NCBI RefSeq assembly: GCF_030070105.2
Contig: NZ_CP194951.1
Span: 537,981-569,980 of the forward strand
Length of the DNA stretch: 32,000 nucleotides
Direction of reading: 5' to 3'
Origin: Bermanella sp. WJH001
GTDB lineage: Bacteria > Pseudomonadota > Gammaproteobacteria > Pseudomonadales > Oceanobacteraceae
Shown here piece after piece: positions 142-18,528 of this stretch. Each line of letters opens with the position of its first letter. Positions within the stretch are counted from its first letter, which is position 1. The notes beneath the pieces are model-generated. The model saw only the letters and a program-made list of their open reading frames with translations. It had not been told where the DNA came from and ran no database searches. The position numbers and the translations under genes were made by a program.

Positions 142-972
142 TTAAAATTTATTTTTTATGTTAGATAGACTTGATGTTAGAGGTGTTAATTTCCCATGCA
201 GCATAGGATTAGAACGAAGGGCATCAATTCGTGATTGTGTGTTAGGGTGGGTATTAAAAAACTCAACGCTTAAATCATTGCCATGTTCGTTAAGCATGGC
301 AGTAAAGAATTCATCAGCACCTTGGGTGTGGCCATAAATTTCGCCAATGGTTCTCAGAGCAGAGGTGTCAGCTTCTCTTTCCATATCACGATTAAAGCGC
401 AGCAAGGTTATGAGCCCAGCTTGATTTAATAATGTACCGGCTGAGCTATCAGAAAAAATCATGGCGCTTACTAATTGAATAATCAACCCGCGGCTTAATG
501 ATTGAATGGGGTGGCGGTGTTGAATATGGGCCATTTCATGGGCCAGTACCATGGCTAAACCATTTTCACTTTTAATATTTTTAATTAAACCTGTGGTCAC
601 AAAGATTTGTCCGCCAAGGGTAGCAAATGCATTTGGCGTGTCATCATCAAGTAGCTGCACGTTATAACTAATATCGATTTGATTTTGCGGTGCGAGTTTG
701 TGCAATAAGTCTTGCAAGGCGATCTGTGCCTCTTGCATGATTTGATTTTCTTCTTCTGCTTCATCTGCTTGAATAACCACAGACGACACCCAAGATTTCT
801 CCCACGCAAACGGAATATAAGGGGAAAGGGCTTGTGCAAAGTATGTCACGCAAGCCACAAACACAACGATGGTTAGCACAACCCCAGTCACCAGTAGAAA
901 AAATTCTTTTAATGGCTGTTCTTGTGATGTGTTGATGCCCTCTGGAAACTTAGGATTTTGTTTTGTTGTCAT
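142..972 (-). CDS. M48 family zinc metallopeptidase, membrane anchored
   Basis: The 276-aa ORF has an HEMAH zinc motif (LAHEMAHIQHRH) and a downstream EREAD glutamate. An N-terminal hydrophobic helix (FFLLVTGVVLTIVVFVACV) is present. The start overlaps the upstream stop as ATGA at 969-972. Confidence 0.85.
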   Translation of the reverse strand: MTTKQNPKFPEGINTSQEQPLKEFFLLVTGVVLTIVVFVACVTYFAQALSPYIPFAWEKSWVSSVVIQADEAEEENQIMQEAQIALQDLLHKLAPQNQIDISYNVQLLDDDTPNAFATLGGQIFVTTGLIKNIKSENGLAMVLAHEMAHIQHRHPIQSLSRGLIIQLVSAMIFSDSSAGTLLNQAGLITLLRFNRDMEREADTSALRTIGEIYGHTQGADEFFTAMLNEHGNDLSVEFFNTHPNTQSRIDALRSNPMLHGKLTPLTSSLSNIKNKF

Positions 973-2316: not shown

Positions 2317-3504
2317 TTAAATCAATTCAATCGCCATAGCTGTCGCTTCACCGCCACCAATACAAAGTGCCGCAACCCCTTTGGTTTTGCCTTTTACTTT
2401 CAGTGCGTTCATTAGGGTTACAATTAAACGTGAACCCGTTGAACCCACTGGGTGGCCTTGTGCACAAGCACCACCAAAAATGTTCACAGTTTCAGGGTCT
2501 AAACCTAGATCCAAGATTGGCATCATGGCAACCATGGCAAACGCTTCGTTGATCTCAAATAAATCAACATCGTTTTTAGTCCAACCTGTTTTAGCAAATA
2601 AGTTTTCAATGGCGCCAACAGGAGCAATGGTGAACTCACTAGGGTGTTGTGATTGTGTGGCGTGACCCACAATACGCGCAAGAGGCTTAAGGCCACGTGC
2701 AGCCGCTTCGCTTTCGCTCATTAATAACAGTGCAGACGCACCGTCAGAAATGGATGACGCGTTAGCAGCAGTAATGGTGCCGTCTTTTTTAAATGCTGGG
2801 CGAAGCGTTGGGATTTTTTCAATGTTCGCATTAAAAGGCTGCTCGTCATGCTCAACAACGGTTTCACCACGACGATTGGTAACCGTCACAGGTACGATTT
2901 CATCTTTTAGTAAACCCGCTTCAATAGCGGCTTTTGCACGGCTTAAAGATTGAATGGCGTAGTTATCCATGTCTTCACGGCTGTAGCCTTTTTTATCAGC
3001 AACGTCTTGCGCAAAGCTGCCCATTAAGCGACCGGTTTCAGCGTCTTCTAGGCCATCTAAAAACATGTGGTCCATTGCTTGATCCGCATGGCCCATACGG
3101 TAACCTTTACGTGCGTTTGGCAAAATATAAGGCGCGTTAGACATGCTCTCCATACCGCCCGCGATCATCACTGTATTCGTACCAGCCTTGATTAGATCGT
3201 GTGCAAACATAGTGGCTTTCATACCTGAGCCACACAATTTGTTGATAGTGGTCGCACCGGTGAAATCAGGTAAACCTGCTTTACGCATGGCCTGACGAGC
3301 AGGGCCTTGTTTTAAGCCAGCAGGTAATACGTTACCCATGATCACTTCTTGAACATCTTCTGGTTTTAAACCAGCGCGCTCAACCACCTCTTTAATAACA
3401 ATGGCACCCAGATCAGTGGCAGAAACCTCAGAAAGGCTACCCTGAAAACCACCCATAGGTGTACGCACACCACTTACGATTACAACAGAATCTTGATTAG
3501 ACAT
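2317..3504 (-). CDS. Acetyl-CoA C-acetyltransferase / thiolase II
   Basis: Thiolase signatures are present: NKLCGSGMKA (nucleophilic Cys), GHPVGSTGSR, and CIGGGEATAMAIE near the C-terminus. I moved the start to the ATG at 3504 (MSNQDSVVIVSGVRTPMGGF), which has GAGG 6 nt upstream. The track ORF start at 3597 adds 31 unrelated residues. Confidence 0.95.
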   Translation of the reverse strand: MSNQDSVVIVSGVRTPMGGFQGSLSEVSATDLGAIVIKEVVERAGLKPEDVQEVIMGNVLPAGLKQGPARQAMRKAGLPDFTGATTINKLCGSGMKATMFAHDLIKAGTNTVMIAGGMESMSNAPYILPNARKGYRMGHADQAMDHMFLDGLEDAETGRLMGSFAQDVADKKGYSREDMDNYAIQSLSRAKAAIEAGLLKDEIVPVTVTNRRGETVVEHDEQPFNANIEKIPTLRPAFKKDGTITAANASSISDGASALLLMSESEAAARGLKPLARIVGHATQSQHPSEFTIAPVGAIENLFAKTGWTKNDVDLFEINEAFAMVAMMPILDLGLDPETVNIFGGACAQGHPVGSTGSRLIVTLMNALKVKGKTKGVAALCIGGGEATAMAIELI

Positions 3505-3784: not shown

Positions 3785-3798
3785 CAAACGGTTGTTTG
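3785..3798. promoter_or_regulatory. CAAAC-N4-GTTTG inverted repeat (PsrA-type fatty-acid-responsive operator form)
   Basis: The sequence CAAACGGTTGTTTG lies in the thiolase/lipase divergent intergenic region. It fits the published PsrA box form (G/C)AAAC-N2-4-GTTT(G/C). No TetR/PsrA gene is in the window. Confidence 0.3.
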
Positions 3799-3811: not shown

Positions 3812-3837
3812 ATTAACCCCCCTGCTATGGGGTTAAT
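3812..3837. promoter_or_regulatory. 9-bp perfect inverted repeat ATTAACCCC-N8-GGGGTTAAT
   Basis: Read directly from the sequence. It lies about 120 nt upstream of the lipase ATG and may be an operator or a small hairpin. Confidence 0.3.
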
Positions 3838-3956
3838 CATACTTTAGTGTGATCTTATTTGAGTGGCCCTTAGATATATTCGGGGCTGTTCAATGGTCTA
3901 TGGCCTCAACAATTAAGCAAGTCCTAACAATCATAAAAACAAGGGGAACTACTCCT

Positions 3957-6794
3957 ATGCTTAAAAAATCCCTATTAAGCCTTGCCGTCACCACCTCGCT
4001 GGTGGGACTTGCAGGCTGTAATATCAGCAGCACCTCAGACAACACAGGCACCAAGCCTGTTGTGCAAACTCAAAATGAGACACAGGCTTCTACCAAGGTT
4101 TACCCATTGTTTAACCCAGCTCGCTCAGTGCTGCCGGTGGGTATCGATTTATTATTTGCTAAAGCATCAACCACTGACGGCACAGCAGATGTAGGTAATG
4201 ACCAAGGTAACCCAGTTAAAAAAGCATTGAACGATATGGACGGTATTTCGACTCTTGCTCCTATCGATGTTCAGTTTAATAAATCTATTGACCCTACGTC
4301 TGCGGTTGCGGGTTCAACTGTATTCCTAGTGAAGCTACCAAATGCTGCGAGTGTTGGTGATGCCGTAGCAAACCAAGTATTGCCAACGGTTTATGATTAT
4401 GGTGATGGAGAGGGTGCTGTCGCTACTAAGCCAGTTGATGCATTGAGCTTAGCTACAATCGCGCCATTTTTTGCAACTACTAAAGTAGATGGTACGGCAG
4501 CAGCCAGCCAGTTAGAAACGGTTGCGGCTCGTAATTTATTTGGTACTACTTTTGATGGAAGCGATCCTGCCACGATTACAGATGGTTTATTAGCTGATCA
4601 GCCTAAACCTGGTGTTGATTACGAAGTAGTAGTGGTTGGTCTTGATGGTACTGATGATAATACCATTCGCATTAATCCACTTAAGCCATTAGACAGCAAA
4701 ACCAAGTATGTAGTATTTGTTACAGGTTCGGTTAAGGATGCCAGTGGCGCTAAAGTTTCCCCATCACCTGATTATGCCTCTATTACAGGCACTGGTGACC
4801 TAGTATCGCCATCACTTGCACCAGTAAGAACGCTTGTTGATACACTTGAGCAATTAGGCGGTCAAATCTTGACTTCTGGTGGCACTAATCTGACCCCTTT
4901 AGCTGACGGGATTGTGTTCTCTGCACCGTTTACAACAACCGACCCTGATACGGTTCTGAAGTCTATGGCAGATCCAGGTTATTGGGCGCCAAACGTTATT
5001 ACTAATAATACAATTGCGGATGCGGTTATTACTGCAGGTGGTATTGATGCATCCGGTGTGGCTGATGCTGCAAAAATTCCAACTGCAATCGGAGTGGCGC
5101 GTGCAGCTCTTACTGCGGCTAATCCAAATTTAGGGAATGCTACAGCATACGAACACCCTCGTGCTCGTACTGTTGAGACAATTCTAGTTGCTGCAAATAC
5201 GGCTTTACGTTTGACACCTGCTCAGATAACAGCGGAATTTGATACGCCTTTAACTGAAGACGTAAAAGTTGGTCAAGCTGCCATTGAATTACCACAGTAC
5301 ACGGCCAAGTTTGATGCTACAGATGCGACCACTTTTTCTGACATCTGGAGTGGCAATGCAACAGTAGGTGCGGTTCTTGATGGAGCATTAGGTCAAGATA
5401 GTGGTACTACCCCTCCAAGTGATACTGATGAGTCTAAAAATGTGACTTATCGTTTTCCGTTTGCCATGGAAAAACGTAAGGCGGTTGTGCCATTCTTAAC
5501 GTTTGAACCTCAGGCTGGTAGTACAGGCCCTGGTGGTGCTGGTTGTACTAAGCCGGGAGCAGGTTGGCCTGTTGTTATCATGCAACATGGTTTTACTTCC
5601 GACCGTACTGGGAACTTGATTAACGGCATTAAAGTGGCGGATCTAACCTGTCATGCGGTTATCGCAATGGATCTTCCTCATCACGGTATCGCGCCAACGA
5701 ATGATGCTTTAGCCTTGAATGTGGATTACACAAATTCAACTGATGCGACAAAGACACCATTTGCAGCAGCTATTGCGTCAACCGTTGCAGCGGCAACGAC
5801 AGCAGAAACACTAGATCAAACCATTCTTGATGATATTGCAGAGCGTCATGAAGGTTTCTACGGAGTATCCGGTGCACCAACACCTGTGACTTATGCTGAT
5901 GATCCTGATAATGGCGTTGGCGGTTCAGGTAGTCTTTGGATTCGTTTAGATAACTTCCAGCGTACTCGTGACAACGTTCGTCAAGCGGTAATGGATTTGA
6001 TGAATCTAAATGCATCACTAGGAAATATTGATCTAGATGGTGACGGTAATCCAGACTTAGATACAACTAAGGTTAATTATATCGGCCACTCTTTAGGAGC
6101 TATTGTAGGTACAACCTTTATTGCGGTTAACAACCAGTCAGCGAACACAAACCTTTACCCTATCAATAAGGCTGTGTTAGCAACTCCTGGTGGTCATTTA
6201 ACCAAGTTGATTGAAAACTCTGTTGGCATTGGTGCAGACGTGATTGCAGGCTTAGGTGGTCTTGGTATTACTCAGGGTAGTTCAAGCTTTGAAAGCTATA
6301 TGAAAGTATTCCAAGCTACTGTTGATTCAGGTGATCCAATGAACTTCATCTCTGAATTGAGTGCAACAGGTGTGAATATTCCAACTGTAATTGTGGGTAT
6401 GTATGGCTCACTGCAAGACGGTGTTCCGGGTGATCTAGTTGTACCTGTAAACGGTGACGGTATCCAAGTAGCAGCAGATACTTTTGTACTTGCTGACGGT
6501 TCAACCAGTCAGCCAGAAACAGCTCGTAACCCGCTAACAGGTTTAGACTCAATGCTAACTTTAATTGGTGCTGAAAATATTAAAGATACACCAACAGGTA
6601 CCAAGTATGTGGCTAAGTATAACGAAGGTGGTCACGGTACGTTCTCATCTGCTGGTACTCGCGGAACAGGTGCGCCTAACTTTGATTCAGCCGATGCTTT
6701 TGCTGAAATGCTAAATCAAACAGTGACGTTATTGCTAACAGGTACTCCAGCAATTAATGATGGCGACTTATTAATCTCTGATGTAACGCCTTAA
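3957..6794 (+). CDS. Large surface lipoprotein lipase, VolA/Pla-1-like (GHSLG serine hydrolase)
   Basis: The start at ATG 3957 (MLKKSLLSLAVTTSLVGLAGCN) gives a signal peptide plus an LAGC lipobox with Asn at +2. The nucleophile elbow GHSLG lies at 6084-6098, with MQHGF oxyanion-type and GGHGT motifs also present. The long T/A/G-rich N-terminal region resembles the bacterial virulence-factor lipase N-terminal region. A GGGGA Shine-Dalgarno is upstream. Confidence 0.85.
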   Translation: MLKKSLLSLAVTTSLVGLAGCNISSTSDNTGTKPVVQTQNETQASTKVYPLFNPARSVLPVGIDLLFAKASTTDGTADVGNDQGNPVKKALNDMDGISTLAPIDVQFNKSIDPTSAVAGSTVFLVKLPNAASVGDAVANQVLPTVYDYGDGEGAVATKPVDALSLATIAPFFATTKVDGTAAASQLETVAARNLFGTTFDGSDPATITDGLLADQPKPGVDYEVVVVGLDGTDDNTIRINPLKPLDSKTKYVVFVTGSVKDASGAKVSPSPDYASITGTGDLVSPSLAPVRTLVDTLEQLGGQILTSGGTNLTPLADGIVFSAPFTTTDPDTVLKSMADPGYWAPNVITNNTIADAVITAGGIDASGVADAAKIPTAIGVARAALTAANPNLGNATAYEHPRARTVETILVAANTALRLTPAQITAEFDTPLTEDVKVGQAAIELPQYTAKFDATDATTFSDIWSGNATVGAVLDGALGQDSGTTPPSDTDESKNVTYRFPFAMEKRKAVVPFLTFEPQAGSTGPGGAGCTKPGAGWPVVIMQHGFTSDRTGNLINGIKVADLTCHAVIAMDLPHHGIAPTNDALALNVDYTNSTDATKTPFAAAIASTVAAATTAETLDQTILDDIAERHEGFYGVSGAPTPVTYADDPDNGVGGSGSLWIRLDNFQRTRDNVRQAVMDLMNLNASLGNIDLDGDGNPDLDTTKVNYIGHSLGAIVGTTFIAVNNQSANTNLYPINKAVLATPGGHLTKLIENSVGIGADVIAGLGGLGITQGSSSFESYMKVFQATVDSGDPMNFISELSATGVNIPTVIVGMYGSLQDGVPGDLVVPVNGDGIQVAADTFVLADGSTSQPETARNPLTGLDSMLTLIGAENIKDTPTGTKYVAKYNEGGHGTFSSAGTRGTGAPNFDSADAFAEMLNQTVTLLLTGTPAINDGDLLISDVTP

Positions 6795-6841
6795 TTAAGA
6801 CCTAAACCATGACAAAAAATATAAATAATAAGAGGTCTGGA

Positions 6842-8779
6842 ATGAATAAATTAAAAACCTTAACACTAGCTGTTGCCGCCATCAGTGCGGCTAGCAGCCA
6901 AGCGATAGAATTTGAAGCGGGGCCAATAACGGCCCAGCTAAATACCAGCTTATCTTGGGGTGTGGCAATGCGCACCGAAGACCCAGATACAGCTCACATT
7001 CACCCAGCTAACGCAGCAGCAATCGGTATGCCGGTTGCCAATACTCAAGCGGGTTCAACGTATAACTATGATGACGGTACCCTTAACTACGAGAAAAATG
7101 ATCTGATCAGTAATGTTGTTAAAGGCAACATGGATCTAGAGCTTGTATGGGGCGACGCGGGTGCGTTTGTTCGTGGTACCGCGTTTTACGATACGGTGAT
7201 TATGGATGAAGATCCAAACTTCAAGCCTTATAACGATGAAACCAAGGATGCCGCGGGTAAAGGTTATGACCTACTTGATGCGTTTGTTTGGTACAACACG
7301 TATATGGGCGATACGCCGGTATCGTTGCGTTTAGGTCGTCAAGTGGTGAGCTGGGGTGAAAGTACCTTTATTCAAGGTGGTATCAACTCTATTAACCCAA
7401 TTAACGCCTCAGCGGTTCGTAAGCCAGGTGTTGAAGTAAAAGAAGTGTTGTTGCCAGTTAACATGGCCTACGGCTCGTTTGGTTTAACTGATAACGTTAC
7501 CTTAGAAGCGTTTTACCAACTAGAGTGGGAGAAAACCCGTGTCGATGGTTGTGGTACTTTCTTCTCGACCGCTGACTTCGTAGCGGACGGTTGTGGTCCT
7601 GTAATCTTGGGCGGTATCTCTGATGAGCGTCAAATCCTAGAAGATTACCAAAACGGTTCTGGCGCCATGCCAATTGCCACCTATAACAGAACGGACGAAC
7701 CTTCTGATGATGGCCAATATGGTTTAGCTCTACGTTGGTACTCTGAAGCACTAGGTGATACTGAGTTTGGTTTGTACTTCATGAATATTCATAGTCGAGT
7801 GCCTATGATTTCAGGTTTTGCAGCCAACACTATCGACCCTGCAGATGGAAGTCCTTTCAACGCCTCAAACGATTTTGGTGCGTATCCTGAGTACATCATT
7901 AAATACCCAGAAGACATCAAGTTAATGGGTGTATCTTTCAACCGTACACTGGATAGCGGCTGGTCTATTAGTGGTGAAGTGAGCATGACGCAAGATCGCC
8001 CAATTCAGCACAATACCTTTGAGCTGCTATTGGCGGGTAACTTGTTACAAACGTCTAAACTGTTTAAACAGCGTTACGAAGAAGCAACCGGTAATACGTT
8101 AGATATCAATGACCCTGCTCAAGTGAGAGCTGCTAAAGAAGCTTTAGCTGGTGAAGAGTTTGATGGTTTTGACCGTATGGATGTTGTGCAAGCACAAATG
8201 ACCTTCTTGCGTTTCTTTGACCAAGTAATGGGTGCCTCTCGTTTAACTTTCATCAGTGAAGTGGGTGTTACTCATATCCCTGATTTACCAGACCGTTCAG
8301 ATGCGCGTTATGGCCGTAGCGGTACTACTGGTATGGGTGGATTCACTCCTGTTGCTCACGATGCAACTGGTGATGGCATTGTAGATGGCTTTTTAACGTG
8401 TGATGCAAGTGCTACAGGTTCATTAGCACAAGGTGTTGACGGTGATGCGGGTAGTAACATCAATCCTACTTACTGTACAAATGACGGTTATGTGAATAAA
8501 ACGTCTGGCGGTATTCGTGCTCGTGCGATCCTTGATTATCCAAATGCTTTCCTTGGTGTAAATATGAAACCAGGTATCGCAGTGGGTATGGACTTTGGTA
8601 ACGGCCCAGAGCCTGCTAGCCAGTTCATTGATGAACGTATGCAGCTTGGTTTGAGTGTAAACTTTGATTACCTAAATAAATACAGTGGTGGTATTTCGTA
8701 CACCATGTTTGAAGGCGGCGATTATGATGCATTGAATGATCGCGACAATGTTAGCTTAAACCTGAAAGTGAATTTCTAA
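6842..8779 (+). CDS. DUF1302-family outer-membrane beta-barrel-like protein
   Basis: The signal peptide is MNKLKTLTLAVAAISAASSQA. The N-terminal pattern FEAGPITAQLNTSLSWGVAMRTEDPD is typical of DUF1302 as I recall it. The protein ends in an aromatic residue (KVNF). GAGG lies 7 nt upstream of the ATG at 6842. Confidence 0.85.
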   Translation: MNKLKTLTLAVAAISAASSQAIEFEAGPITAQLNTSLSWGVAMRTEDPDTAHIHPANAAAIGMPVANTQAGSTYNYDDGTLNYEKNDLISNVVKGNMDLELVWGDAGAFVRGTAFYDTVIMDEDPNFKPYNDETKDAAGKGYDLLDAFVWYNTYMGDTPVSLRLGRQVVSWGESTFIQGGINSINPINASAVRKPGVEVKEVLLPVNMAYGSFGLTDNVTLEAFYQLEWEKTRVDGCGTFFSTADFVADGCGPVILGGISDERQILEDYQNGSGAMPIATYNRTDEPSDDGQYGLALRWYSEALGDTEFGLYFMNIHSRVPMISGFAANTIDPADGSPFNASNDFGAYPEYIIKYPEDIKLMGVSFNRTLDSGWSISGEVSMTQDRPIQHNTFELLLAGNLLQTSKLFKQRYEEATGNTLDINDPAQVRAAKEALAGEEFDGFDRMDVVQAQMTFLRFFDQVMGASRLTFISEVGVTHIPDLPDRSDARYGRSGTTGMGGFTPVAHDATGDGIVDGFLTCDASATGSLAQGVDGDAGSNINPTYCTNDGYVNKTSGGIRARAILDYPNAFLGVNMKPGIAVGMDFGNGPEPASQFIDERMQLGLSVNFDYLNKYSGGISYTMFEGGDYDALNDRDNVSLNLKVNF

Positions 8780-8821
8780 CTGCTACACTTTTTGTAAGCT
8801 CATAATTGTTAAGGAATAGAT

Positions 8822-10186
8822 ATGTTAATGAAGAAAACGTTAATCGGGTCAGCCATTGCGCTGACCCTAGCTGCCGGCAACGTGCTGGCAGCGGTATCAG
8901 CTACAGAAGCAGCCCGTTTAGGTAAAGACCTGACGCCAATGGGTGCTGAGAAAAATGGTAACGGTGGTGCCATCCCAGCTTGGACGGGTGGCATTGAGTC
9001 GCCAGCTGGCTTTAAAGTGGGCAGCAAGCACATTGACCCATTTGCTGGTGATAAAGTGCAGTTCACCATTACGGCTCAAAACTACACCAAGTACGCAGCA
9101 AACTTGACCGAAGGTCAGATTGCTATGTTTAAGAAATACCCAGAAACCTACAAAATGCCGGTTTATCAAACTCGCCGTAGTTCTGCGTACCCACAAAACG
9201 TGTATGACAAGACTAAAGAGAACGCCACGGCCACTAAGCTAGTTGGCGGTGGTAATGGTTTGTCTAACTATGATGTGGGTGTACCGTTCCCAATTCCAGC
9301 GGATGGCATTGAAGTGATTTGGAATCACATTGTACGTTACCGTGGTGGTAGTGTGAGCCGTGTGGTTGGTCAAGCCACTCCACAGCCAAACGGTACTTAC
9401 ACCATGGTGAAGTTTAAAGATGAATTCACCTTTAAAAACAAACTGTCTGACTATGATCCAGCAACCATGAAAGACAACAATATCTTGTTTTATTTCAAGC
9501 AAGATGTTGTGTCACCTGCTCGTTTAGCGGGTAACGTTTTACTTGTTCACGAAACACTAGACCAAGTAAAAGAGCCGCGTAAAGCATGGATCTATAACGC
9601 AGGTCAGCGTCGTGTTCGTCGTGCACCTCAGGTAGCCTATGACGGTCCAGGTACTGCATCTGATGGTCTTCGTACTTCTGATAACTTCGATATGTATAAC
9701 GGTGCACCTGACCGTTACACTTGGAAGTTGATTGGTAAAAAAGAAGTCTACATTCCATACAACTCTTATAAGCTAAACTCTGGCGACCTTAAATATGATG
9801 ACATCATCAAAGCGGGTCACATTAACCAAGATCTAACTCGTTACGAGTTGCACCGTGTATGGCATGTTGAAGCGACACTTAAAGATGGCCAGCGTCATAT
9901 TTATGGTAAGCGTACCTTCTATATTGATGAAGATACTTGGCAAGCCACTGAAATTGACCATTTCGACGGCCGTGGTGAGTTATGGCGTGTAGCAGAAGCA
10001 CACAACATTTACTTCTATGATCGTAAAGTGCCTTGGTACACCATCGAAACATTATATGACTTGCAGTCTGGTCGTTACCTAGCACTTGGTCTAGATAACG
10101 AAGAAACCAAGCCATATGACTTTGGTTTTACTCGTAGTGAAAAAGATTACACCCCAGCAGCGCTTCGCCGCTCAGGTGTGCGTTAA
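8822..10186 (+). CDS. DUF1329-family (LolA-like fold) periplasmic/outer-membrane protein
   Basis: The signal peptide is MLMKKTLIGSAIALTLAAGNVLA. The hallmark GKDLTPMGAEKNGNGGAIPAWTGG is typical of DUF1329 as I recall it. An AAGGA Shine-Dalgarno is present, and the gene lies 42 nt after the DUF1302 gene. Confidence 0.85.
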   Translation: MLMKKTLIGSAIALTLAAGNVLAAVSATEAARLGKDLTPMGAEKNGNGGAIPAWTGGIESPAGFKVGSKHIDPFAGDKVQFTITAQNYTKYAANLTEGQIAMFKKYPETYKMPVYQTRRSSAYPQNVYDKTKENATATKLVGGGNGLSNYDVGVPFPIPADGIEVIWNHIVRYRGGSVSRVVGQATPQPNGTYTMVKFKDEFTFKNKLSDYDPATMKDNNILFYFKQDVVSPARLAGNVLLVHETLDQVKEPRKAWIYNAGQRRVRRAPQVAYDGPGTASDGLRTSDNFDMYNGAPDRYTWKLIGKKEVYIPYNSYKLNSGDLKYDDIIKAGHINQDLTRYELHRVWHVEATLKDGQRHIYGKRTFYIDEDTWQATEIDHFDGRGELWRVAEAHNIYFYDRKVPWYTIETLYDLQSGRYLALGLDNEETKPYDFGFTRSEKDYTPAALRRSGVR

Positions 10187-10213
10187 TTAGCTCCGGTTAA
10201 TTAGCTTTTGTGA

Positions 10214-10246
10214 AAGCCCTTGTTCTTGGACAAGGGCTTTTTTATT
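10214..10246 (+). terminator. Rho-independent terminator of the lipase-DUF1302-DUF1329 operon
   Basis: A 9-bp stem AGCCCTTGT/ACAAGGGCT with a 6-nt loop is followed by TTTTTTATT. It is immediately preceded by the TTTTGTGAAAG 11-mer. Confidence 0.8.
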
Positions 10247-10426
10247 GCCTTGTTGTACGTAAAGTAATGCTGAGTTAACCCAAATGGATTGGGTGATTTG
10301 CGCCATTGTTGCCAAATCACAATCTATTCTTGATATTGCTAATGCTAAGTGTTCTTATGCAAAGAGCTGGCGTATTCCGTCTGAGCATATAGATTAAAAA
10401 ATAATAAGAATATCTGGGGATTAGTT

Positions 10427-13129
10427 GTGTTTTCCATTGAAAACTCTGTCGTTAAAACTCTCTCTGAAAGCCGTGTGCGTGTTTTGGCAATGAAGCTTCA
10501 ATTGCCATTGTTACCTCTGCACTTTATTCGCCGTGACTCGGTGATGGAAAAACTGGATAAAGCCTCCCAATCTCGCTTTTTTGTATTTGAAGCAGCCGCC
10601 GGTTATGGCAAGTCATTATCTTTAGCGCAATGGCTTCACCAAAAAAAACAACACAAAGAAGCGGTTGCTTGGCTAACCCTTGATCCAAAAGAAAACGACC
10701 CCTTTCGTTTATTAACATACCTTATTTGTGCCATTCATTCTGCTGATAATAAAAGTGTTCCAAAGACACTTAAGGCATTGGAGGAAGCAAAATCAATTGA
10801 TGAAATAGTGACTTTATTGCATCTTGAGTTGGCAGCCATTTCCCATGTTTTGCATTTGGCATTAGATGATATTCACCATATCAGCAGTGAAGAAAGTTTA
10901 GAGTTAATAGAGCAGCTCGTCGCTCATACCCCCGCCAATTTAAAAATATACTTTACCGCCACATCGTTATTTCCAATTGATATGTCACGTGCAATTGGCC
11001 AAGGACAATGTGTGTTTATTGATGAGAAGAATCTGGCCTTAAATAAAGAAGAAGCAAAACAGTGGCTGAGTTATGCGATTAAAGCGCCACTTGAAGAAAA
11101 TCAAATTAACGACATCTTTTTACAAAGCGAAGGCTGGTTTACAGGTTTGGTTTTGATTAAGTATTTATATGAAAACGATCAGCCTACGAAGGTCAAAGGT
11201 GATGAAAAAATCATTACAGACTATTTTGAACAACAGTGGCGCCCATCAATAAATGAAGATGAATATGTGCTGTGTAGTCAATTGTCCCACATAGGAAAAG
11301 CCAGTGGCTTATATTTGGATGCGGTATATGAAACATCGGACAGCCAAACCCTATTAGGTTCTTTAACTAAAAAGCATGCCCTAGTGATTGCCGATAAAGA
11401 ACGCAACAGCTGGTATCACGTTCACCCACTTTTAAGTGCTTATTTATCGAATTTAAGTGATGGTCTTGCTCGGGTTTCAGAATTAGAAAAAGCCAGCGTT
11501 TGGCTTAATCAACATGGTTATTATGTTGAGGCGGTGGAGATGGCTCTAAAAGCAGGAAATAAGCAGCAAGCCGCGCAATTACTGCAAACAACCGCTGAAA
11601 CGATTTTAGAAGAACAAGACATTGCTCAATTGCTGCAATGGAAAAAACAATTACCCGATGATGTGATTACCGTCTCGCCACGCTTGGTCATTATTTTTAG
11701 TTGGACTTTAGCGTTTGCACAACAACTTGATGATGCCGAGCGTTTGATGGCACAAATGGATCGCTTTTTAGTGACAGGTAGCGGTGCCATTACCGACGGT
11801 GTATCCGGACAATTATTTGCAATACGGGCTTACATTGCCCGTTGTCGTGGCAAAATCAGTAACGCGATTCAGTTGTGTAAGCAAGCTCTGGATAAGTTAG
11901 ACGATACAAACTACGTCGCAAAATCTGTTACTTATTTTAACTTATCCAATGTCTATATGACGTTGAACAAGGTGAGTGAAGCCCGTCATTATAATCGGCT
12001 ATCATTTGAGACTGCTCGTGCAGTGGGCAGCATACATTTAGAGATGCTTGCCCTGCATGAACAGGCTCGTATCGAGCAAGTGAAAGGTAACTTATACCTA
12101 GCAGAAAAAATATTAAACGAAGGATTGGCTTTGTCTGAAAGGCTACCCAATCGCAATAAAGCGGCAGCTTATGGAAGGTTGCTTGTTTATAAGGGTTATA
12201 TCGTTTGGTTGCGCAACCATAAAGATGAAGCAGAGCAACTATTATTACAAGGCATTGAAATATCAGAGCAATGCCATGACTCCTACATCATCATGGGTTA
12301 TGTATTACTGAATAACTTAGCGCGCCAGCGTGGCCAAATCGAAAAAGCATACGATTATTTATCCAAGGTAGAAGCGATACTGCAATATTGGTCGGTACCT
12401 GGATTTATATACCAGCCTTGGCTGTCTACCATGCGTGTCAACTTATTGATTGATGAAAACAAAATTGACACCGCTCAGGCAAACCTTAAGCATTTACAAG
12501 GTTTGCTTGAGCAAAATGAATATGCGCTTTCGCCAGAACATTATCCGGACCTCAAAGGTTTGGTCGAAGTATTTTCAGTCAGAGCCAAGTCAATTGCAGG
12601 CCAGCATAAAACGGCCCTTAAGCAACTGGATAAAAAACTAGAAGGTGGCTCTCAAGACCAGCAAGGTTTTTCAATGATCTTTATCTATTTGATGCGCGCA
12701 TTGTTGCGTTATCAATTGGGTCAGGAAGATAATGCGCTACAAGACTTCCGCAAGGCCATATCCATGGCAGAAAAGAATTTTTGTATTATGCCGTTTATTG
12801 AATATAGCCCAGGCATGGCGGCGCTGTATCAACAACTGCCAAGCAATATCAAACAAAAAGAGTTCATTCGAACCATCCTAAGTAATATTGAGCTAAATGA
12901 CCAAGGTCATCACAATCAGGCCTTTGCTCAAATTCGCAGTATCATTAGTCAACGGGAGTTAGCCGTACTTAAGCTCATTGCAGAAGGTCTTAGCAACCAA
13001 GAGATTGCTGAGCGCTTGTTTATTAGCTTACATACAGTGAAAACCCATGCACGACGCATTAATGGCAAGCTGGCGGTTAAGAGTCGCACCCAAGCCATTA
13101 TCAAAGCACGAGAGATCGGCGTGATTTAG
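10427..13129 (+). CDS. MalT-type STAND ATPase / LuxR-family transcriptional activator
   Basis: The roughly 900-aa protein aligns at its N-terminus with E. coli MalT ([21 protein letters not shown]...[15 protein letters not shown]-loop). It has a long helical/TPR-like middle and a C-terminal LuxR HTH ([39 protein letters not shown]). The GTG at 10427 has GGGGA 6 nt upstream; ATG 10490 is an alternative start. Confidence 0.85.
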
Positions 13130-13193
13130 CGTTCGCACTTGGCAATTATTCGTTCATGAGCTAAACCTAAATAATAATCATAGGTATAGAATC

Positions 13194-14369
13194 ATGGATG
13201 GCGACAACATTATCTCTATATTAAGTGAACGCCCACGGCTATTGGATGATAGCCTTGGAAAGCGTTACACACTTAAGCAATATCCCATTGAAGCTCAACT
13301 ATTAAGTAAGCTTGACCCTGACACCAAGCTGATTGTTTTAGATTTTATTGAGCACGGCCCAGAAGCATTAGAATTGATCAAAAACATCCGAAATAAAGGT
13401 GGTTTTGATCAAGTACCCATTATTGTATTAGAAGGGGAGCACCTTCATCACTCAAGCATTCAAGCCTTTGAGATGGGCTGCGATGACATCATTGATAAAG
13501 GGGTCAATGAAGCTGAGATAGCTCTTCGCTGCGAAAAACTCATCTTCAACAAAATCGCCAGTGATCAACTACAAGCTCAGGTTAAACAAGCCACTGAGCT
13601 GGCCTTTATTGCCATGTCAGATACTTCTGACTTGGGTATTAACATTCAGTTTTTACTTGAAGTACATCAATGCAGTAATTTAGACGAATTGGGCATGCGG
13701 CTTTTACAAGCAGTCAATGCTTACGGACTAAAAGCAAGTGTCCAGCTACGAAGTGAAATGGGCACAAAAAACATGGAAGCCTCAGGCATGGAGCGTGAGT
13801 TAGAATCAAAGCTAATGTGGGAGCTAAAGGATGACGGGCGCTACATTGACTTTGGCAAACGCAGCGTGATGAATTACGAGCAAGTTTCAGTGTTAGTCAA
13901 AGACATGCCGGTTGATGATGAAAAAAAATACGGCGCTTTAAAAGATAACCTGTTTTCGTTATTGCAAGGTGCAGATGCAAGACTAAAAGCACTAGAAAAT
14001 GTACAACAAGTGGAAGATCAGCAACAAATGGTCAGAAGCTTATCCATCAAAATGCAAAATATGATGGAAGACATTGATGATGGTTATCAAAGCGTGATGA
14101 AAAGCATCGCGGATGTGGTTGAAAACATGTCAGATGGAATAAATGAAGTGATCATGAATCTTGCTTTGCATGAAGAACAAGAACGTGCCTTAGAAAAAGT
14201 AATGGAATACGGGTTGCAAACCACAAATGCAATATTTTCTAAAGGCTTGCAACTAGATGAGGATTTCCAAAACGTAATTAAAGAGCTCGGCGTCTTTTTA
14301 TCAAATGATAAAGTGAAATTTACCGCCGAGCAGCGCAAGAAATTATTAAAAATCATCAATGAAAGCTAA
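13194..14369 (+). CDS. Atypical receiver (REC)-like domain protein with uncharacterised coiled-coil C-terminal domain
   Basis: Residues of about 6-120 follow the CheY-fold pattern. The phospho-acceptor-position Asp (LIVLDF) and conserved Lys (IIDKG) are present. The N-terminal acidic pair is replaced (ISILSERP). The remaining roughly 270 aa match no family I recognise. Confidence 0.6.
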   Translation: MDGDNIISILSERPRLLDDSLGKRYTLKQYPIEAQLLSKLDPDTKLIVLDFIEHGPEALELIKNIRNKGGFDQVPIIVLEGEHLHHSSIQAFEMGCDDIIDKGVNEAEIALRCEKLIFNKIASDQLQAQVKQATELAFIAMSDTSDLGINIQFLLEVHQCSNLDELGMRLLQAVNAYGLKASVQLRSEMGTKNMEASGMERELESKLMWELKDDGRYIDFGKRSVMNYEQVSVLVKDMPVDDEKKYGALKDNLFSLLQGADARLKALENVQQVEDQQQMVRSLSIKMQNMMEDIDDGYQSVMKSIADVVENMSDGINEVIMNLALHEEQERALEKVMEYGLQTTNAIFSKGLQLDEDFQNVIKELGVFLSNDKVKFTAEQRKKLLKIINES

Positions 14370-14380
14370 GTGCTGTGCAC

Positions 14381-15316
14381 TTAGCGATTCAATGCCCCGC
14401 AGCTATGCATATCTGAAAAATCCACATTCCAAGGTTGTTCTGAACGCAGTTCCTCCACAATAAAGTCCACAAACGATCTGACCTTTACACTTAAATGGCG
14501 GTTGCTTGGATAAAGCGCGTGTATTGGTGTACTGGTATTAGACCAATCACAAAGCAAAGGAATCAAACGGCCAGCTTTAATATCTTCTGCACACAAAAAT
14601 GCCGGTAAGCGAGAAACCCCTAAGCCATTAAGCGCCATTTTCCGCATGCTTAAGGCATCGTTTACTTGCACCTTTGGTTTTAAATCAACACTCACGGCTT
14701 CTGGTGTATCGTATTCCCAAGTATTACGTGCGCTCCAACCAAGGGTTGTGTGCTCATATAATTCTTTAGGGTGACTTGGAGAGCCGTGTTTTTCTATGTA
14801 TGCAGGGCTTGCACAAGTTACCGTTTGCACGCTGCCAAGAGAGCGGGCAATTAATGATGAATCGGCAAGGTGGCCCACACGAAAAGCCACATCGATGCCT
14901 TCTTGTATTAAATCCAATGGTTGATCGGTTAACACGATGTCTAGCTGGATCTCAGGATTCTTTTGTAAAAACTCCGACACAAGATCACTTAGCACCTCGG
15001 CGCCAAACAACATGGGGGCGGTGATGCGCAGTAAACCTTTAGGCTTGGACTGCATCTCAGTGACCGCAATGTTGGCTTCTTCCACATCACCAATAATGCG
15101 TGAGCATTGATTGTAATAGGCACTGCCAGTATCCGTTAAGCTTAACGTGCGTGTGGTGCGCTGAAGTAAGCGCACGCCAAGGCGTTCTTCAAGCTGCGTG
15201 ATCTTTCGGCTCACGGTGGATTTAGGTAGTCCAAGGTTTTTAGCGGCTCCTGTAAAGCTGCCCGCATCGACGACTTTAACGAAGATGGCAATTTCGTTGA
15301 GATCAAATTGTTCCAT
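14381..15316 (-). CDS. LysR-family transcriptional regulator
   Basis: The N-terminal winged HTH is FVKVVDAGSFTGAAKNLGLPKSTVSRKITQLEERLGVRLLQRTTR, followed by a LysR substrate-binding-type C-terminus. The gene is divergent from the FadL gene. Confidence 0.9.
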   Translation of the reverse strand: MEQFDLNEIAIFVKVVDAGSFTGAAKNLGLPKSTVSRKITQLEERLGVRLLQRTTRTLSLTDTGSAYYNQCSRIIGDVEEANIAVTEMQSKPKGLLRITAPMLFGAEVLSDLVSEFLQKNPEIQLDIVLTDQPLDLIQEGIDVAFRVGHLADSSLIARSLGSVQTVTCASPAYIEKHGSPSHPKELYEHTTLGWSARNTWEYDTPEAVSVDLKPKVQVNDALSMRKMALNGLGVSRLPAFLCAEDIKAGRLIPLLCDWSNTSTPIHALYPSNRHLSVKVRSFVDFIVEELRSEQPWNVDFSDMHSCGALNR

Positions 15317-15602: not shown

Positions 15603-17153
15603 GTGATCAACAAAAAAATAGCACTAAGATCAGCGATCGTGGCGGCGAGCATCCTGCCATCTCTTGCAATGGCCTCTGGTTATAAACTAAACGAACAATC
15701 TGCTGCTGGTATGGGTACTGCCCACGCTGGCCGCGCAGCCATGGCTGACGACGCGTCTGTTGTATTCTACAACCCAGCGGCCATGACTGAATTAGACCGT
15801 GCACAACTAACGGCTGGTTTTACTTACATTAAAGGTCACGGTGAGTTCACTGGTAATGCTACAAATGCTGGTGGCTTTGATATTACAGGCGCGGATGATT
15901 CAGATCCTTACTCTGACGGTGGTAATTACCTAGGCGAGTCATTCATCCCATTCTTCTACTATGCGCGCCCAATTAATGAGAAGTTGTCTGTGGGCCTTGG
16001 TGTATTTACTCCATTTGGCACCAAAACCAACTATGAAGATGACTTTGTAGGTGGTGGTTTTGCAGATGAAACTTCACTTATCTCTTTAGAGTTAGCCCCT
16101 ACTTTTGCTTACAAGGTAAATGAGCAATTAAGTATCGGTGGTGGTCTTGATATCGTTTATATGGAAGGTTTGCTATCCAAGTTTGTTGACACGGTTCCTT
16201 ATAGTGCGCAACTAGCTGGACTTTATGCTCAAACAGAAGCAGCAGGTGGTGACGGTGATGCAGCTCTTAAAAATCAGGGCTTAGCGCAAGGTGAAAACTC
16301 TCCTCTTATAGATTCAACAAATGCCGGCTTTGAAAACCATTACGAAGTAAAAGGCGACGACTGGGGTATTGGTTGGAATTTTGCGGCTTATTATGAGCTA
16401 AGTGAAAAAACAACACTTGGCTTCACTTATCGTTCAGAAATTGAATTTGAACTTGAAGGTGATTCGAAGTTTGATGGTGCGGATACTTTCTATGTTTACT
16501 CTCAAGCAAACGATGCCAAAGTACCAGTTGGTGCTTTACTGGGGACAGCGCAAACATCTATTGCACCACAAGCCTCAAAAGTACCTTTAACCACTCCTGC
16601 TTCAGCAACTTTAGCGGTAACTCACCAGTTCAACGATGAGTTGCTACTTCAAGCGGGCGCAACTTGGACGGGTTGGTCTTCATTTCAATCATTTGATGTG
16701 ATTGCTACAGAAGACACTGCGGGTCTAGCTGATGGTGTTGCTCACATATCGGATATTTCAGAATTAAACGGTCTTGAAGACGGTTATATCGGTCACATTG
16801 ATGAGCGTTGGGTGGATGTATGGGCGGTTGCGTTTGGTGGTACTTACCAGCTAAACGACAAACTAGCACTGCGTGCCGGTTACGCTTATGACCAATCTCC
16901 AGTGCGTGATGAATACCGTACTGCCCGTGTGCCTTCTTCTGACCGTCAGTGGGTAACACTGGGTGCGGGTTATACTGTTAACCAAGATCTGTCTTTTGAT
17001 GTAGCGGCGGGTTACTTGTTCATGTACCCAATGGACTTGAATGAAGTAAACAAGGATCTTGATAACAACCCTACTTCTAGTAAAGCCAGTGTAACAGGCG
17101 AATACGAAATCGACGTATTTGGTTTGTCTGCTCAGGTGAACTACAAGTTCTAA
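15603..17153 (+). CDS. fadL: FadL/OmpP1/TodX-family outer-membrane long-chain fatty acid or hydrophobic compound channel
   Basis: After the signal peptide (INKKIALRSAIVAASILPSLAMA), the mature N-terminus SGYKLNEQSAAGMGTAHAGRAA matches the FadL hatch motif. The protein ends with a terminal Phe (VNYKF). The proposed start is GTG 15603, with AGGTGA 5 nt upstream. The track ORF from 15495 adds a non-signal extension. Confidence 0.9.
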   Translation: MINKKIALRSAIVAASILPSLAMASGYKLNEQSAAGMGTAHAGRAAMADDASVVFYNPAAMTELDRAQLTAGFTYIKGHGEFTGNATNAGGFDITGADDSDPYSDGGNYLGESFIPFFYYARPINEKLSVGLGVFTPFGTKTNYEDDFVGGGFADETSLISLELAPTFAYKVNEQLSIGGGLDIVYMEGLLSKFVDTVPYSAQLAGLYAQTEAAGGDGDAALKNQGLAQGENSPLIDSTNAGFENHYEVKGDDWGIGWNFAAYYELSEKTTLGFTYRSEIEFELEGDSKFDGADTFYVYSQANDAKVPVGALLGTAQTSIAPQASKVPLTTPASATLAVTHQFNDELLLQAGATWTGWSSFQSFDVIATEDTAGLADGVAHISDISELNGLEDGYIGHIDERWVDVWAVAFGGTYQLNDKLALRAGYAYDQSPVRDEYRTARVPSSDRQWVTLGAGYTVNQDLSFDVAAGYLFMYPMDLNEVNKDLDNNPTSSKASVTGEYEIDVFGLSAQVNYKF

Positions 17154-17192: not shown

Positions 17193-17228
17193 GCGCATCT
17201 CAGCTTAGCTGGGGTGCGCTTTTTTTTG
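17193..17228 (+). terminator. Rho-independent terminator after fadL
   Basis: A 12-bp stem GCGCATCTCAGC/GCTGGGGTGCGC (2 G-U pairs) with a TTA loop is followed by T8. Confidence 0.8.
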
Positions 17229-17280: not shown

Positions 17281-17344
17281 TGTGGGAGGGCGCTCGCGCG
17301 CGACATTCATATCTTAGTTTGTCGCGCGCGAGCGCCCTCCCACA
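17281..17344. repeat. 24-bp perfect GC-rich palindrome (REP-like) with 16-nt loop
   Basis: The arms are TGTGGGAGGGCGCTCGCGCGCGAC and GTCGCGCGCGAGCGCCCTCCCACA. The arm core GTCGCGCGCGAGCGC resembles GACGCGCGCAGCGC of the dispersed element. TTTTGTGAAAG lies 10 nt upstream. Confidence 0.9.
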
Positions 17345-17652: not shown

Positions 17653-18528
17653 GTGAAGCAGCCTATGTACAGCGCCGAAGCAGATATGAGTAACCTGGCC
17701 GCATTGCATCAAAATCAGCAATTGCGCATCAAGGCGTTAGATTTAGTGAAATCCCTATTTGAGCAGGTACGTGTTGTACAGCAACACCGTGCTGCAACAA
17801 ACGCGGCCCTTGCGGGCAATCCGTTCTTTGAGAGCAAGACACGTGTGCTTGCCCGTGAAGTGAATTCACGTTTTAAGGAATTGGAGCGTCAACAACAAGA
17901 TTGCCTTGATGTAATCGACTCACGCCAGTGGGATGATATTCGTAACGCATGGCAAACGGTGCATTTGCAATGGCGCCAAGATGAAATCATTGAAAACTTT
18001 GAATTACACAGCCACCTCGTTAAACAACTCTTGTCGTATATCTCGATCTTGGGGAATAAGGTTGAAGACTTAATTGAAACAGGCAGCCAGCATCAAGCCT
18101 TAAGCCACTATGTGTTAAACGATGTACCGTCTTTTATTGAGCTACTTGGGCAAATACGTGCACTGGGTACCTCAACGGCGGTTGTGGGGATTATGGATGA
18201 TGCCTGTGATATGCGTTTACGCTTTTTAATGGGGCAGTTACAAAAACAACAAATCAAGGTGAAACAACAAGCTCATCATTTAAGCCAAGAGGCTTTAGAC
18301 ATTACCTCATCACTGATTGATGCTCTTTTATGTGAGCCTAAGCTTGAACGTTTAACCGGTATTGTGATGCATGATTTACTCAGTGGCCGCGATATTGTGA
18401 CCAGTGCGGATGAAATATTTACCTTAAGCACTCAAATTATTGATGCTCATTATAATGTGATGAATGAAGGGTTACGGATGTTGCGTCTAAGTATGGATAA
18501 GCGCATGCAGGCTTGGGTAAGCCGTTAA
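17653..18528 (+). CDS. Hypothetical all-helical protein (weak NIT-like N-terminal pattern, unconfirmed)
   Basis: The ORF is 291 aa from GTG 17653, or 287 aa from ATG 17665. It has no signal peptide or TM segment and no family I can name with confidence. It is preceded by the sigma-54 architecture. Confidence 0.6.
   Translation: MKQPMYSAEADMSNLAALHQNQQLRIKALDLVKSLFEQVRVVQQHRAATNAALAGNPFFESKTRVLAREVNSRFKELERQQQDCLDVIDSRQWDDIRNAWQTVHLQWRQDEIIENFELHSHLVKQLLSYISILGNKVEDLIETGSQHQALSHYVLNDVPSFIELLGQIRALGTSTAVVGIMDDACDMRLRFLMGQLQKQQIKVKQQAHHLSQEALDITSSLIDALLCEPKLERLTGIVMHDLLSGRDIVTSADEIFTLSTQIIDAHYNVMNEGLRMLRLSMDKRMQAWVSR

Follow-up and report, generated by a model that had tools for sequence, protein, structure and literature searches.

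In a 32,000-nt stretch of the genome of Bermanella sp. WJH001 (NZ_CP194951.1, positions 537,981-569,980; referred to below as the window, with all coordinates given as window positions), a lipoprotein lipase related to VolA is encoded in one operon with an outer-membrane beta-barrel of the DUF1302 family and a periplasmic protein of the DUF1329 family. We give a probability of about 0.6 to the idea that this locus is an outer-membrane module for the acquisition of lipids and fatty esters. What is new here is that the known module of DUF1302, DUF1329 and a LuxR-type regulator has a VolA-related lipase built into its operon. According to our proposal, the lipase, a Lol-sorted serine hydrolase anchored in the outer membrane, would deacylate hydrophobic esters at this membrane, and the porin-like DUF1302 barrel together with the periplasmic LolA-like DUF1329 protein would carry the substrate and/or the acyl product over the outer membrane and the periplasm. 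The capture would be private to the cell, either by import of the intact ester or by tightly coupled hydrolysis and capture, and the fatty acid would then enter beta-oxidation, in keeping with a divergent thiolase gene and a FadL gene nearby. The operon would be switched on by a MalT-type LuxR activator, the positional equivalent of PP_0767 of Pseudomonas putida, probably via an ATCA-N10-TGAT box, and a PsrA-type palindrome would add fatty-acid-responsive repression. The idea that the barrel and the lipase act on the same substrates is based on their recurrent linkage, on the occurrence of FadL with a periplasmic binder as the alternative to DUF1302, on the catabolic neighbours, on the orthology to a locus required for growth on esters, and on the shared expression of the orthologues. 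The operon and the gene divergent from it are composed as follows:

2317-3504, minus strand: acetyl-CoA C-acyltransferase (thiolase; Pfam Thiolase_N/C, E 5e-88), divergent from the lipase operon

3957-6794, plus strand: predicted outer-membrane lipoprotein serine lipase/esterase, a long-form VolA/Pla-1 relative (family matches, invariant catalytic residues, AlphaFold2 (AF2) model)

6842-8779, plus strand: DUF1302 outer-membrane beta-barrel of 645 aa with a signal peptide and a C-terminal Phe (Pfam, E 5e-167)

8822-10186, plus strand: DUF1329 periplasmic LolA-like protein of 454 aa (Pfam, E 7e-165; LolA_like, E 4e-10)

10212-10246, plus strand: intrinsic terminator ending the three-gene operon, a 13-bp stem followed by a T-run (folding free energy, dG, -20.1 kcal/mol; z-score -3.9)

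The anatomy of the operon agrees with a preliminary description of this DNA, which had reported three genes on the same strand, gaps of 47 and 42 nt without hairpins, and a single strong terminator at the end. The lipase and DUF1302 genes are separated by 47 nt, the DUF1302 and DUF1329 genes by 42 nt, and the folding of these gaps is no stronger than that of shuffled sequences (z -1.0 and z +0.7, respectively). The terminator hairpin was located at 10212-10241 with its T-run reaching 10246; the automatic terminator scan did not list it. The base composition is even around the locus, with no signature of an island.

The lipase has 945 aa, a lipobox L-A-G-C at residues 18-21 and the motif GHSLG, as had been noted before. 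Across 82 lipase homologues, C21, the oxyanion motif H544-G545, the nucleophile motif G710-H-S712-L-G714, D826 and H893 are all invariant. The protein contains the Pfam domains Lipase_bact_N (PF12262; 36.7 bits at a cutoff of 22.3) and Big_5, and it matches the NCBIfam model for VolA/Pla-1 (TIGR03502) with 186.6 bits (E 7e-55), i. e. below the curated cutoff of 383.9. With this model, short-form lipases score at the cutoff (365-392 bits), and the long forms, among them the window lipase, which exceeds the short ones by about 250 aa, reach 187-228 bits. These scores mark the window lipase as a long form that is related to VolA but divergent. The earlier designation as a VolA-like lipase is thus supported by the lipobox, the Lipase_bact_N domain, the serine hydrolase apparatus and a significant family match, but not by a score above the family cutoff or by co-transcription with FadL. 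In an AF2 model based on the 82-sequence alignment (per-residue confidence, pLDDT, 88.6; predicted template-modelling score, pTM, 0.91), a disordered tether follows the lipidated Cys, the nucleophile elbow (strand-turn-helix) carries Ser712, and Asp826 and His893 come after later strands, at the positions that are canonical for alpha/beta-hydrolases. A sequence search of the PDB gave no match, and a Foldseek search with the model retrieved only generic esterases and lipases (sterol esterase, Xanthomonas LipA, Lp-PLA2) with a query TM-score of at most 0.21. The residue that follows the lipidated Cys is Asn, and the Lol sorting rules send a lipoprotein with such a residue at position +2 to the outer membrane; because of this residue, the lipase should be anchored there.

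For the two partners of the lipase, the family assignments are equally clear, and together with Lipase_bact_N all families that had been named beforehand were recovered. The DUF1302 protein matches Pfam PF06980 with 557.7 bits (cutoff 23.2) and ends with ...KVNF, thus confirming the C-terminal Phe, and the DUF1329 protein, whose signal peptide as read by eye ends with ...VLA-AV, matches PF07044 with 549.2 bits and LolA_like with 40.2 bits. The AF2 model of the DUF1302 protein (pLDDT 78) is a large barrel of approximately 18-20 strands that has its best Foldseek matches among porin-type barrels (MOMP, chitoporin, AlgE, OccAB) rather than with the FadL fold, and a published analysis of the DUF1302 family agrees with a barrel of the porin type. 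The family is large: at least 4856 matches were found among the candidates scored, and the best 120 matches are all orthologues with at least 51% identity. The DUF1302/DUF1329 pair has been reported to be near-universal in P. aeruginosa, and roles as esterase, exporter or transporter have been proposed for it; published AlphaFold co-folding led to the proposal of a transport system and predicted a complex of the barrel and DUF1329. The view that no function is known for these families therefore overlooks both this transport hypothesis and the genetics of AmeAB and PP_0765/6 (see below). In the literature that could be searched, we found no relevant connection between DUF1329 and a lipase.

The linkage between the lipase and DUF1302 is not a peculiarity of one genome. 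In all seven contexts that were looked up, the order is divergent thiolase, lipase, DUF1302 and DUF1329, with lipase identities ranging from 80% to 35% and gaps of 20-74 nt. We then considered 77 distinct loci, obtained by scanning one genome per species with the lipase alignment and annotated by hidden Markov models built from the window and its relatives. In 36 of them, DUF1302 is the next gene downstream of the lipase and has the same orientation: 25 are of the Oceanospirillales type (including Bermanella, Thalassolituus, Oleispira, Bacterioplanes and Oceanobacter), eight belong to the Nevskiales, and the other three come from metagenome-assembled genomes (MAGs) of a member of the Rhodanobacteraceae, of Geopsychrobacter (Desulfuromonadota) and of a deltaproteobacterium. 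Among the Oceanospirillales-type loci, the thiolase gene divergently adjoins the lipase in every case, and DUF1329 is next in all linked loci that are not cut by the end of a contig. Bermanella marisrubri (CP051183) has the whole arrangement of the window including the receiver-like gene, the LysR gene, FadL and the next two genes. In the Nevskiales (L045, L046, L047, L049, L064, L068, L069, L070), a gene for a glycerol-3-phosphate dehydrogenase-like (GlpD-like) protein precedes the lipase and a genuine DUF1302 (Pfam, E 2e-155). The lone lipases (35/77; Marinobacter, Hahella, Competibacteraceae, Steroidobacteraceae, Planctomycetes) have unrelated housekeeping neighbours, and compared to these the linkage in 36 loci exceeds chance. 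A neighbour-joining tree built from 84 lipases shows the genes linked to DUF1302 at four or more separate positions, with FadL-linked genes between them. This tree is rough and the counts of linked loci are inflated by shared ancestry; even so, without a functional coupling of the lipase and DUF1302, the recurrence in several orders would be difficult to account for.

In 6 of the 77 loci (Granulosicoccus, Halioglobus and others), FadL is found directly upstream of the lipase, and in five of these six a secreted chalcone isomerase-like protein (Chalcone_3, E 1e-49) follows it. We know of no description of this arrangement of FadL, short-form VolA-like lipase and Chalcone_3, which is present in L058, L074, L076, L079 and L080 (Granulosicoccus, Halioglobus and other gammaproteobacterial MAGs). 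By analogy, these loci would share with the DUF1302 loci the logic of a channel, a lipase and a periplasmic binder. Neighbours of 811-824 aa in the FadL-linked loci were considered as RND permeases and rejected, since by eye they resemble long acyl-CoA dehydrogenases of the FadE type.

Some of the loci have features of their own. In the Oleispira MAG loci L032 and L036, there is a tandem duplication, lipase-DUF1302 followed by lipase-DUF1302-DUF1329. The Nevskiales locus L064 has an additional Alginate_exp-like barrel. The locus L001 (GCA_052920985.1) is labelled 'Pseudomonas sp. HK3'; its lipase is 80% identical to that of the window and its synteny is Bermanella-like, and the genome is probably not that of a Pseudomonas.

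When annotated plasmid records were searched with DUF1329, the best match was in a P. aeruginosa record (CP109682.1, locus L085), in the order cioAB ... thiolase (minus strand), fatty-acid-CoA ligase, DUF1302, DUF1329, a 906-aa helix-turn-helix regulator, copA1 and PhoH, a stretch that we take to be the PA3930-PA3920 chromosomal region. The record itself is a 425-kb 'plasmid' that carries this chromosomal-looking cioAB-copA1 region. Window and P. aeruginosa proteins are 74% (thiolase), 68% (DUF1329), 39% (DUF1302) and 66% (PhoH-like) identical, and the regulators are 29% identical over 889 residues, i. e. full length. Because of the common gene order and these identities, the window locus is, as judged by synteny, the counterpart of PA3925-PA3921 and of P. 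putida PP_0763-PP_0767. Both loci have the divergent thiolase, a first gene, DUF1302, DUF1329 and the LuxR-type regulator in the same order and orientation as well as an 18-bp box upstream and a PhoH-like gene nearby. They differ in the first position of the operon, which is occupied by a medium-chain fatty-acid-CoA ligase in Pseudomonas but by the 945-aa lipoprotein lipase in the window, and the receiver-like gene, the LysR gene and FadL of the window are absent from the P. aeruginosa stretch.

The phenotypes of the P. putida genes are informative with respect to the cargo. Sequencing of randomly barcoded transposon insertions (RB-TnSeq) has shown that PP_0765, PP_0766 and PP_0767 are specifically required on Tween 20, and PP_0765/6 mutants are also defective on butyl stearate relative to myristate; all three genes are dispensable on laurate and myristate in this pooled assay. 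No esterase was identified in the fitness study, and its authors have pointed out that a shared extracellular esterase would show no defect in a pooled library. Since the genes are needed on esters but not on the free acids, and since the defect is visible in a pool, the analogy to P. putida would favour a cell-private step at or before hydrolysis over a simple channel for released fatty acids. PP_2018 and PP_2019, BNR and RND genes outside the locus, likewise show defects on butyl stearate and are cofit with it. Genes for BNR/YCF48-like propellers or MMPL/RND permeases were found neither in the 32-kb window nor within 10 kb of any related locus in the flanks that were searched. This absence had been regarded as a distinguishing trait of the Bermanella locus, a view that we have to abandon, as the orthologous P. 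aeruginosa stretch has no adjacent BNR/RND genes either and the P. putida genes are cofit in trans.

Evidence for a common expression comes from Thalassolituus oleivorans MIL-1. We re-read the sequences and spectral counts in the published proteome supplement and located the locus TOL_0633-0636 by sequence. TOL_0634 is 42-49% identical to the window lipase over the stored N-terminal part, and TOL_0636 shares 78% identity with the window DUF1329 protein. The spectral counts are as follows:

lipase TOL_0634: n-C14 19.6, n-C28 71.1, Tween 80 26.5 (P 6e-5)

DUF1302 TOL_0635: n-C14 14.9, n-C28 42.4, Tween 80 14.5 (P 2e-4)

DUF1329 TOL_0636: n-C14 45.5, n-C28 74.3, Tween 80 42.5 (P 1.5e-3)

thiolase TOL_0633: n-C14 110.6, n-C28 76.8, Tween 80 126.7 (P 0.024)

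Thus, all three orthologues of the operon are made, and they follow one common pattern with higher levels on the solid alkane n-C28, whereas the thiolase shows the opposite trend. The authors of the proteome study did not discuss these operon proteins. They are comparable to another pair of this hydrocarbon degrader, the MMPL-LolA-like fusion TOL_3187 and the porin TOL_3188 (PMC6304351), in that a LolA-like module is combined with an outer-membrane barrel and that both sets are induced on n-C28; this likeness is drawn from the domain type alone, as TOL_3187/TOL_3188 are other proteins with another architecture and no lipase.

The control of the operon seems to involve a second unit at 10427-14369 and two sites upstream of the lipase:

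3785-3798: CAAAC-GGTT-GTTTG, a perfect palindrome that fits the consensus of PsrA operators, the only one in the window

3836-3854: 19-nt box ATCAyACTTTnGnGyGATs (ATCA-N10-TGAT, an 18-bp palindrome), 121 nt in front of the lipase start

10427-13129, plus strand: MalT-type STAND NTPase/TPR_MalT/LuxR (GerE) activator (Pfam TPR_MalT, E 3e-35; GerE, E 1e-18)

13194-14369, plus strand: pseudo-receiver protein of 391 aa with a conserved unannotated C-terminal domain, probably accessory (receiver (REC) match under the cutoff)

Pfam agrees with the initial reading of this unit as a MalT-like STAND/LuxR regulator and a receiver-like protein, although the receiver match of the latter is sub-threshold. 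The regulator has the P-loop AAAGYGKS and the complete architecture of STAND, TPR_MalT and GerE domains; with 307.8 bits against the NCBIfam model for MalT (NF003420; cutoff 537), it is by all appearances MalT-like but not MalT. The receiver domain of the second protein reaches 21.5 bits (Pfam PF00072, cutoff 30.2). It has kept D50, with S11-E12 in place of the acidic pair, and its orthologues do not share a conserved Lys. Its family comprises 1771 cluster representatives at E<=0.001 and 1111 at E<=1e-10, with members of about 380 aa in which the receiver domain is accompanied by a conserved domain of some 260 aa at the C-terminus, outside the Pfam and NCBIfam models; distant members have true REC domains. 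The gene is confined to a subclade of the loci, and we treat the protein as a putative accessory, phosphorylation-independent component. The two genes had been called a dedicated regulatory pair: both are indeed present, but the receiver-like one is probably accessory.

Among the related loci, the sequence in front of the lipase gene shows striking conservation. The 19-nt box precedes the lipase in nearly all long-form loci (most of L001-L066), including lone Marinobacter genes, and it is also found where no LuxR gene is adjacent. In the P. aeruginosa locus, the CoA-ligase and DUF1302 genes each have a similar box 85-89 nt upstream (L085, 5032 and 6930). The window holds one exact copy; in 32 kb, chance alone would give about one match with up to three mismatches. 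This box, conserved upstream of regulon genes in three families, is a candidate operator for the MalT-LuxR activator, and its 18-bp symmetry would suit a dimeric helix-turn-helix protein. A role of the conserved leader as an RNA element was considered and rejected, since Rfam had nothing relevant for it and, as judged by eye, the variation of the 19-nt box keeps pairing only in the outer 4 bp; we therefore read the box as a putative DNA site. PsrA is a fatty-acid-responsive repressor of the TetR family. The palindrome at 3785-3798, which conforms to the published PsrA operator consensus C/GAAAC-N2-4-GTTTG/C (PMC13104628), is kept in position in L001, L004, L005, L010, L011 and L088, i. e. in the closest relatives including B. 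marisrubri, and suggests an additional, repressive control by long-chain fatty acids.

Downstream of the regulatory genes, the window contains a FadL gene as a separate transcription unit:

14381-15316, minus strand: LysR-family regulator (Pfam HTH_1 and LysR_substrate), divergent from FadL

15603-17153, plus strand: FadL-family outer-membrane long-chain fatty-acid channel (Pfam Toluene_X, E 6e-111)

FadL has a GTG start at 15603 with a Shine-Dalgarno sequence, 5.4 kb past the terminator of the operon and behind the divergent LysR gene, as well as its own terminator (17193-17219, dG -21.2). The LysR gene is kept beside FadL in loci that carry the MalT-LuxR gene. Just past the FadL terminator, at 17281-17344, there is a perfect G+C-rich inverted repeat of 25 bp (GTGGGAGGGCGCTCGCGCGCGACA ... 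TGTCGCGCGCGAGCGCCCTCCCAC; dG -63 kcal/mol, z -11) in a surrounding region of 43% G+C; it occurs once in the window and in none of the 88 related loci, and its Rfam matches are spurious and miRNA-like only. Next to it, a 291-aa open reading frame (17653-18528, plus strand) and a 687-aa one (18685-20748, minus strand) have no Pfam match and are conserved in position in B. marisrubri (299 and 697 aa, respectively). Further away, one open reading frame (29733-30377, minus strand) joins DUF1244 to a HopJ type III effector-like domain. At the other end of the window, at 969-1882 and 142-972 (both minus strand), two tandem YbjQ_1 paralogues (putative heavy-metal-binding proteins) are followed by an M48 peptidase gene, the start of which overlaps the end of the second paralogue by 4 nt.

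The position of FadL bears on the first alternative to our proposal, which is identical to the mechanism put forward in the preliminary description: a surface-exposed VolA-like lipase would release fatty acids, and DUF1302 and DUF1329 would serve as a FadL-like conduit or chaperone for these products without RND or BNR partners. VolA of Vibrio cholerae is indeed a surface lipoprotein lysophospholipase that is co-transcribed with FadL (PMC3656444), and the window operon resembles this system in its lipobox lipase with Lipase_bact_N and a significant VolA/Pla-1 match as well as in combining a lipase and a barrel that both belong to the outer membrane; genuine pairs of FadL and lipase even exist within the family of the window lipase. 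Moreover, FadL and DUF1302 alternate as neighbours of the lipase over the family tree, and the periplasmic chalcone isomerase-like protein of the FadL-linked loci parallels DUF1329. The conserved adjacency, this parallel and the co-expression in T. oleivorans are thus in favour of that mechanism. On the other hand, the P. putida orthologues are needed on esters and dispensable on free laurate and myristate, the clade already has a FadL gene 5 kb downstream, and the partner of the lipase in the window is a porin/AlgE-like rather than a FadL-like barrel that comes with DUF1329. The lipase also differs from VolA in its lower family score and greater length, and the window shows no co-transcription of the lipase with FadL. 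Finally, the absence of linked RND/BNR genes is the norm of the subfamily, yet such genes are cofit in trans in Pseudomonas. Taken together, we consider a mere conduit for released fatty acids as unlikely.

According to a second alternative, the direction of transport would be the opposite one: DUF1302 and DUF1329, together with an RND/YCF48-like pair encoded elsewhere, would move an envelope lipid, a surfactant, or the lipase itself outward. MMPL/RND proteins are usually exporters, which speaks for this possibility, as does the LolA-like nature of DUF1329, given that LolA carries lipoproteins. [quoted passage not shown] In Castellaniella defragrans, AmeB is needed for growth on monoterpenes, and the AmeABCD system (DUF1302, DUF1329, a COG4447/YCF48-like propeller and an MMPL/RND protein) has been interpreted as a monoterpene efflux system. 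It has the DUF1302/DUF1329 pair and hydrophobic substrates in common with the window locus, which differs from the four-gene system in having no adjacent propeller or MMPL/RND gene. The Ame-type four-gene clusters that we examined on one plasmid each of Vibrio alfacsensis and P. putida are found in an aromatic-catabolic context with no lipase, and their proteins are 36-38% (DUF1329) and 27-28% (DUF1302) identical to those of the window. Several observations disagree with an export function. Some lipases of the same family have no DUF1302 linked to them, and in Vibrio VolA arrives at the cell surface with FadL as its only such neighbour; the Nevskiales loci are without DUF1329 in the stored flanks; and the neighbours (thiolase, CoA ligase, GlpD-like protein, FadL) are catabolic rather than related to envelope biogenesis. 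Export or assembly thus appears to be even less likely than the conduit.

That the lipase simply landed in a neighbourhood of fatty acid catabolism and that its adjacency to DUF1302 is inherited synteny is highly improbable: although 25 of the 36 linked loci are from Oceanospirillales, so that vertical inheritance inflates the count, the linkage recurs with lipases from different branches in the Nevskiales, the Rhodanobacteraceae MAG and the delta/Desulfuromonadota MAGs, the gaps of 20-74 nt have no terminator, the trio shares one expression pattern in T. oleivorans, and the Oleispira loci duplicate lipase-DUF1302 in tandem as one unit.

Our proposal of an outer-membrane acquisition module has to be weighed against several observations that speak against it. 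First, the mutant phenotypes for DUF1302 and DUF1329 come from loci without a linked lipase, and an interpretation as export or efflux systems has been given to related pairs beside MMPL/RND and YCF48-like genes. PA3923, in addition, has been connected with laminin binding and biofilm. Second, the lipase can work without a linked barrel, as indicated by Marinobacter, Hahella and many short forms that have no adjacent DUF1302, and in its predicted outer-membrane location it may face either the surface or the periplasm. Third, no DUF1329 was detected in the Nevskiales loci in the stored flanks (about 2.5-8 kb past DUF1302), even at E 0.01; therefore, the barrel can be linked to the lipase without a LolA-like partner nearby. 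Finally, the T. oleivorans trio is induced on n-C28 and not on the ester Tween 80, and the natural cargo may thus be broader than esters or other than these.

It is tempting to go one step further, although we regard this only as a tentative idea. The DUF1302-DUF1329 pair might be a second, FadL-independent import route for bulky hydrophobic compounds, with the lipase docked on the barrel or feeding it, so that the cell would hydrolyse and capture for itself esters, acylglycerols, wax esters or lysolipids, according to a logic similar to that of SusCD. The Pseudomonas phenotype would then reflect the same machine with an unlinked hydrolase.

DUF1302 and DUF1329 are widespread and have strong phenotypes on esters and terpenes, but there is no agreed biochemical role for them. 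The operon described here gives the two families a testable role in the acquisition of lipids and esters. It supplies the kind of hydrolase that had escaped the P. putida fitness study, and thus the DUF proteins themselves need not be the esterase. Since the operon is present in the cultured bacteria B. marisrubri and T. oleivorans, it provides a compact three-gene system for genetics and reconstitution. An acquisition module of this kind would be relevant for the turnover of lipids and oil by marine hydrocarbon degraders and, more generally, for the passage of hydrophobic nutrients over the outer membrane.

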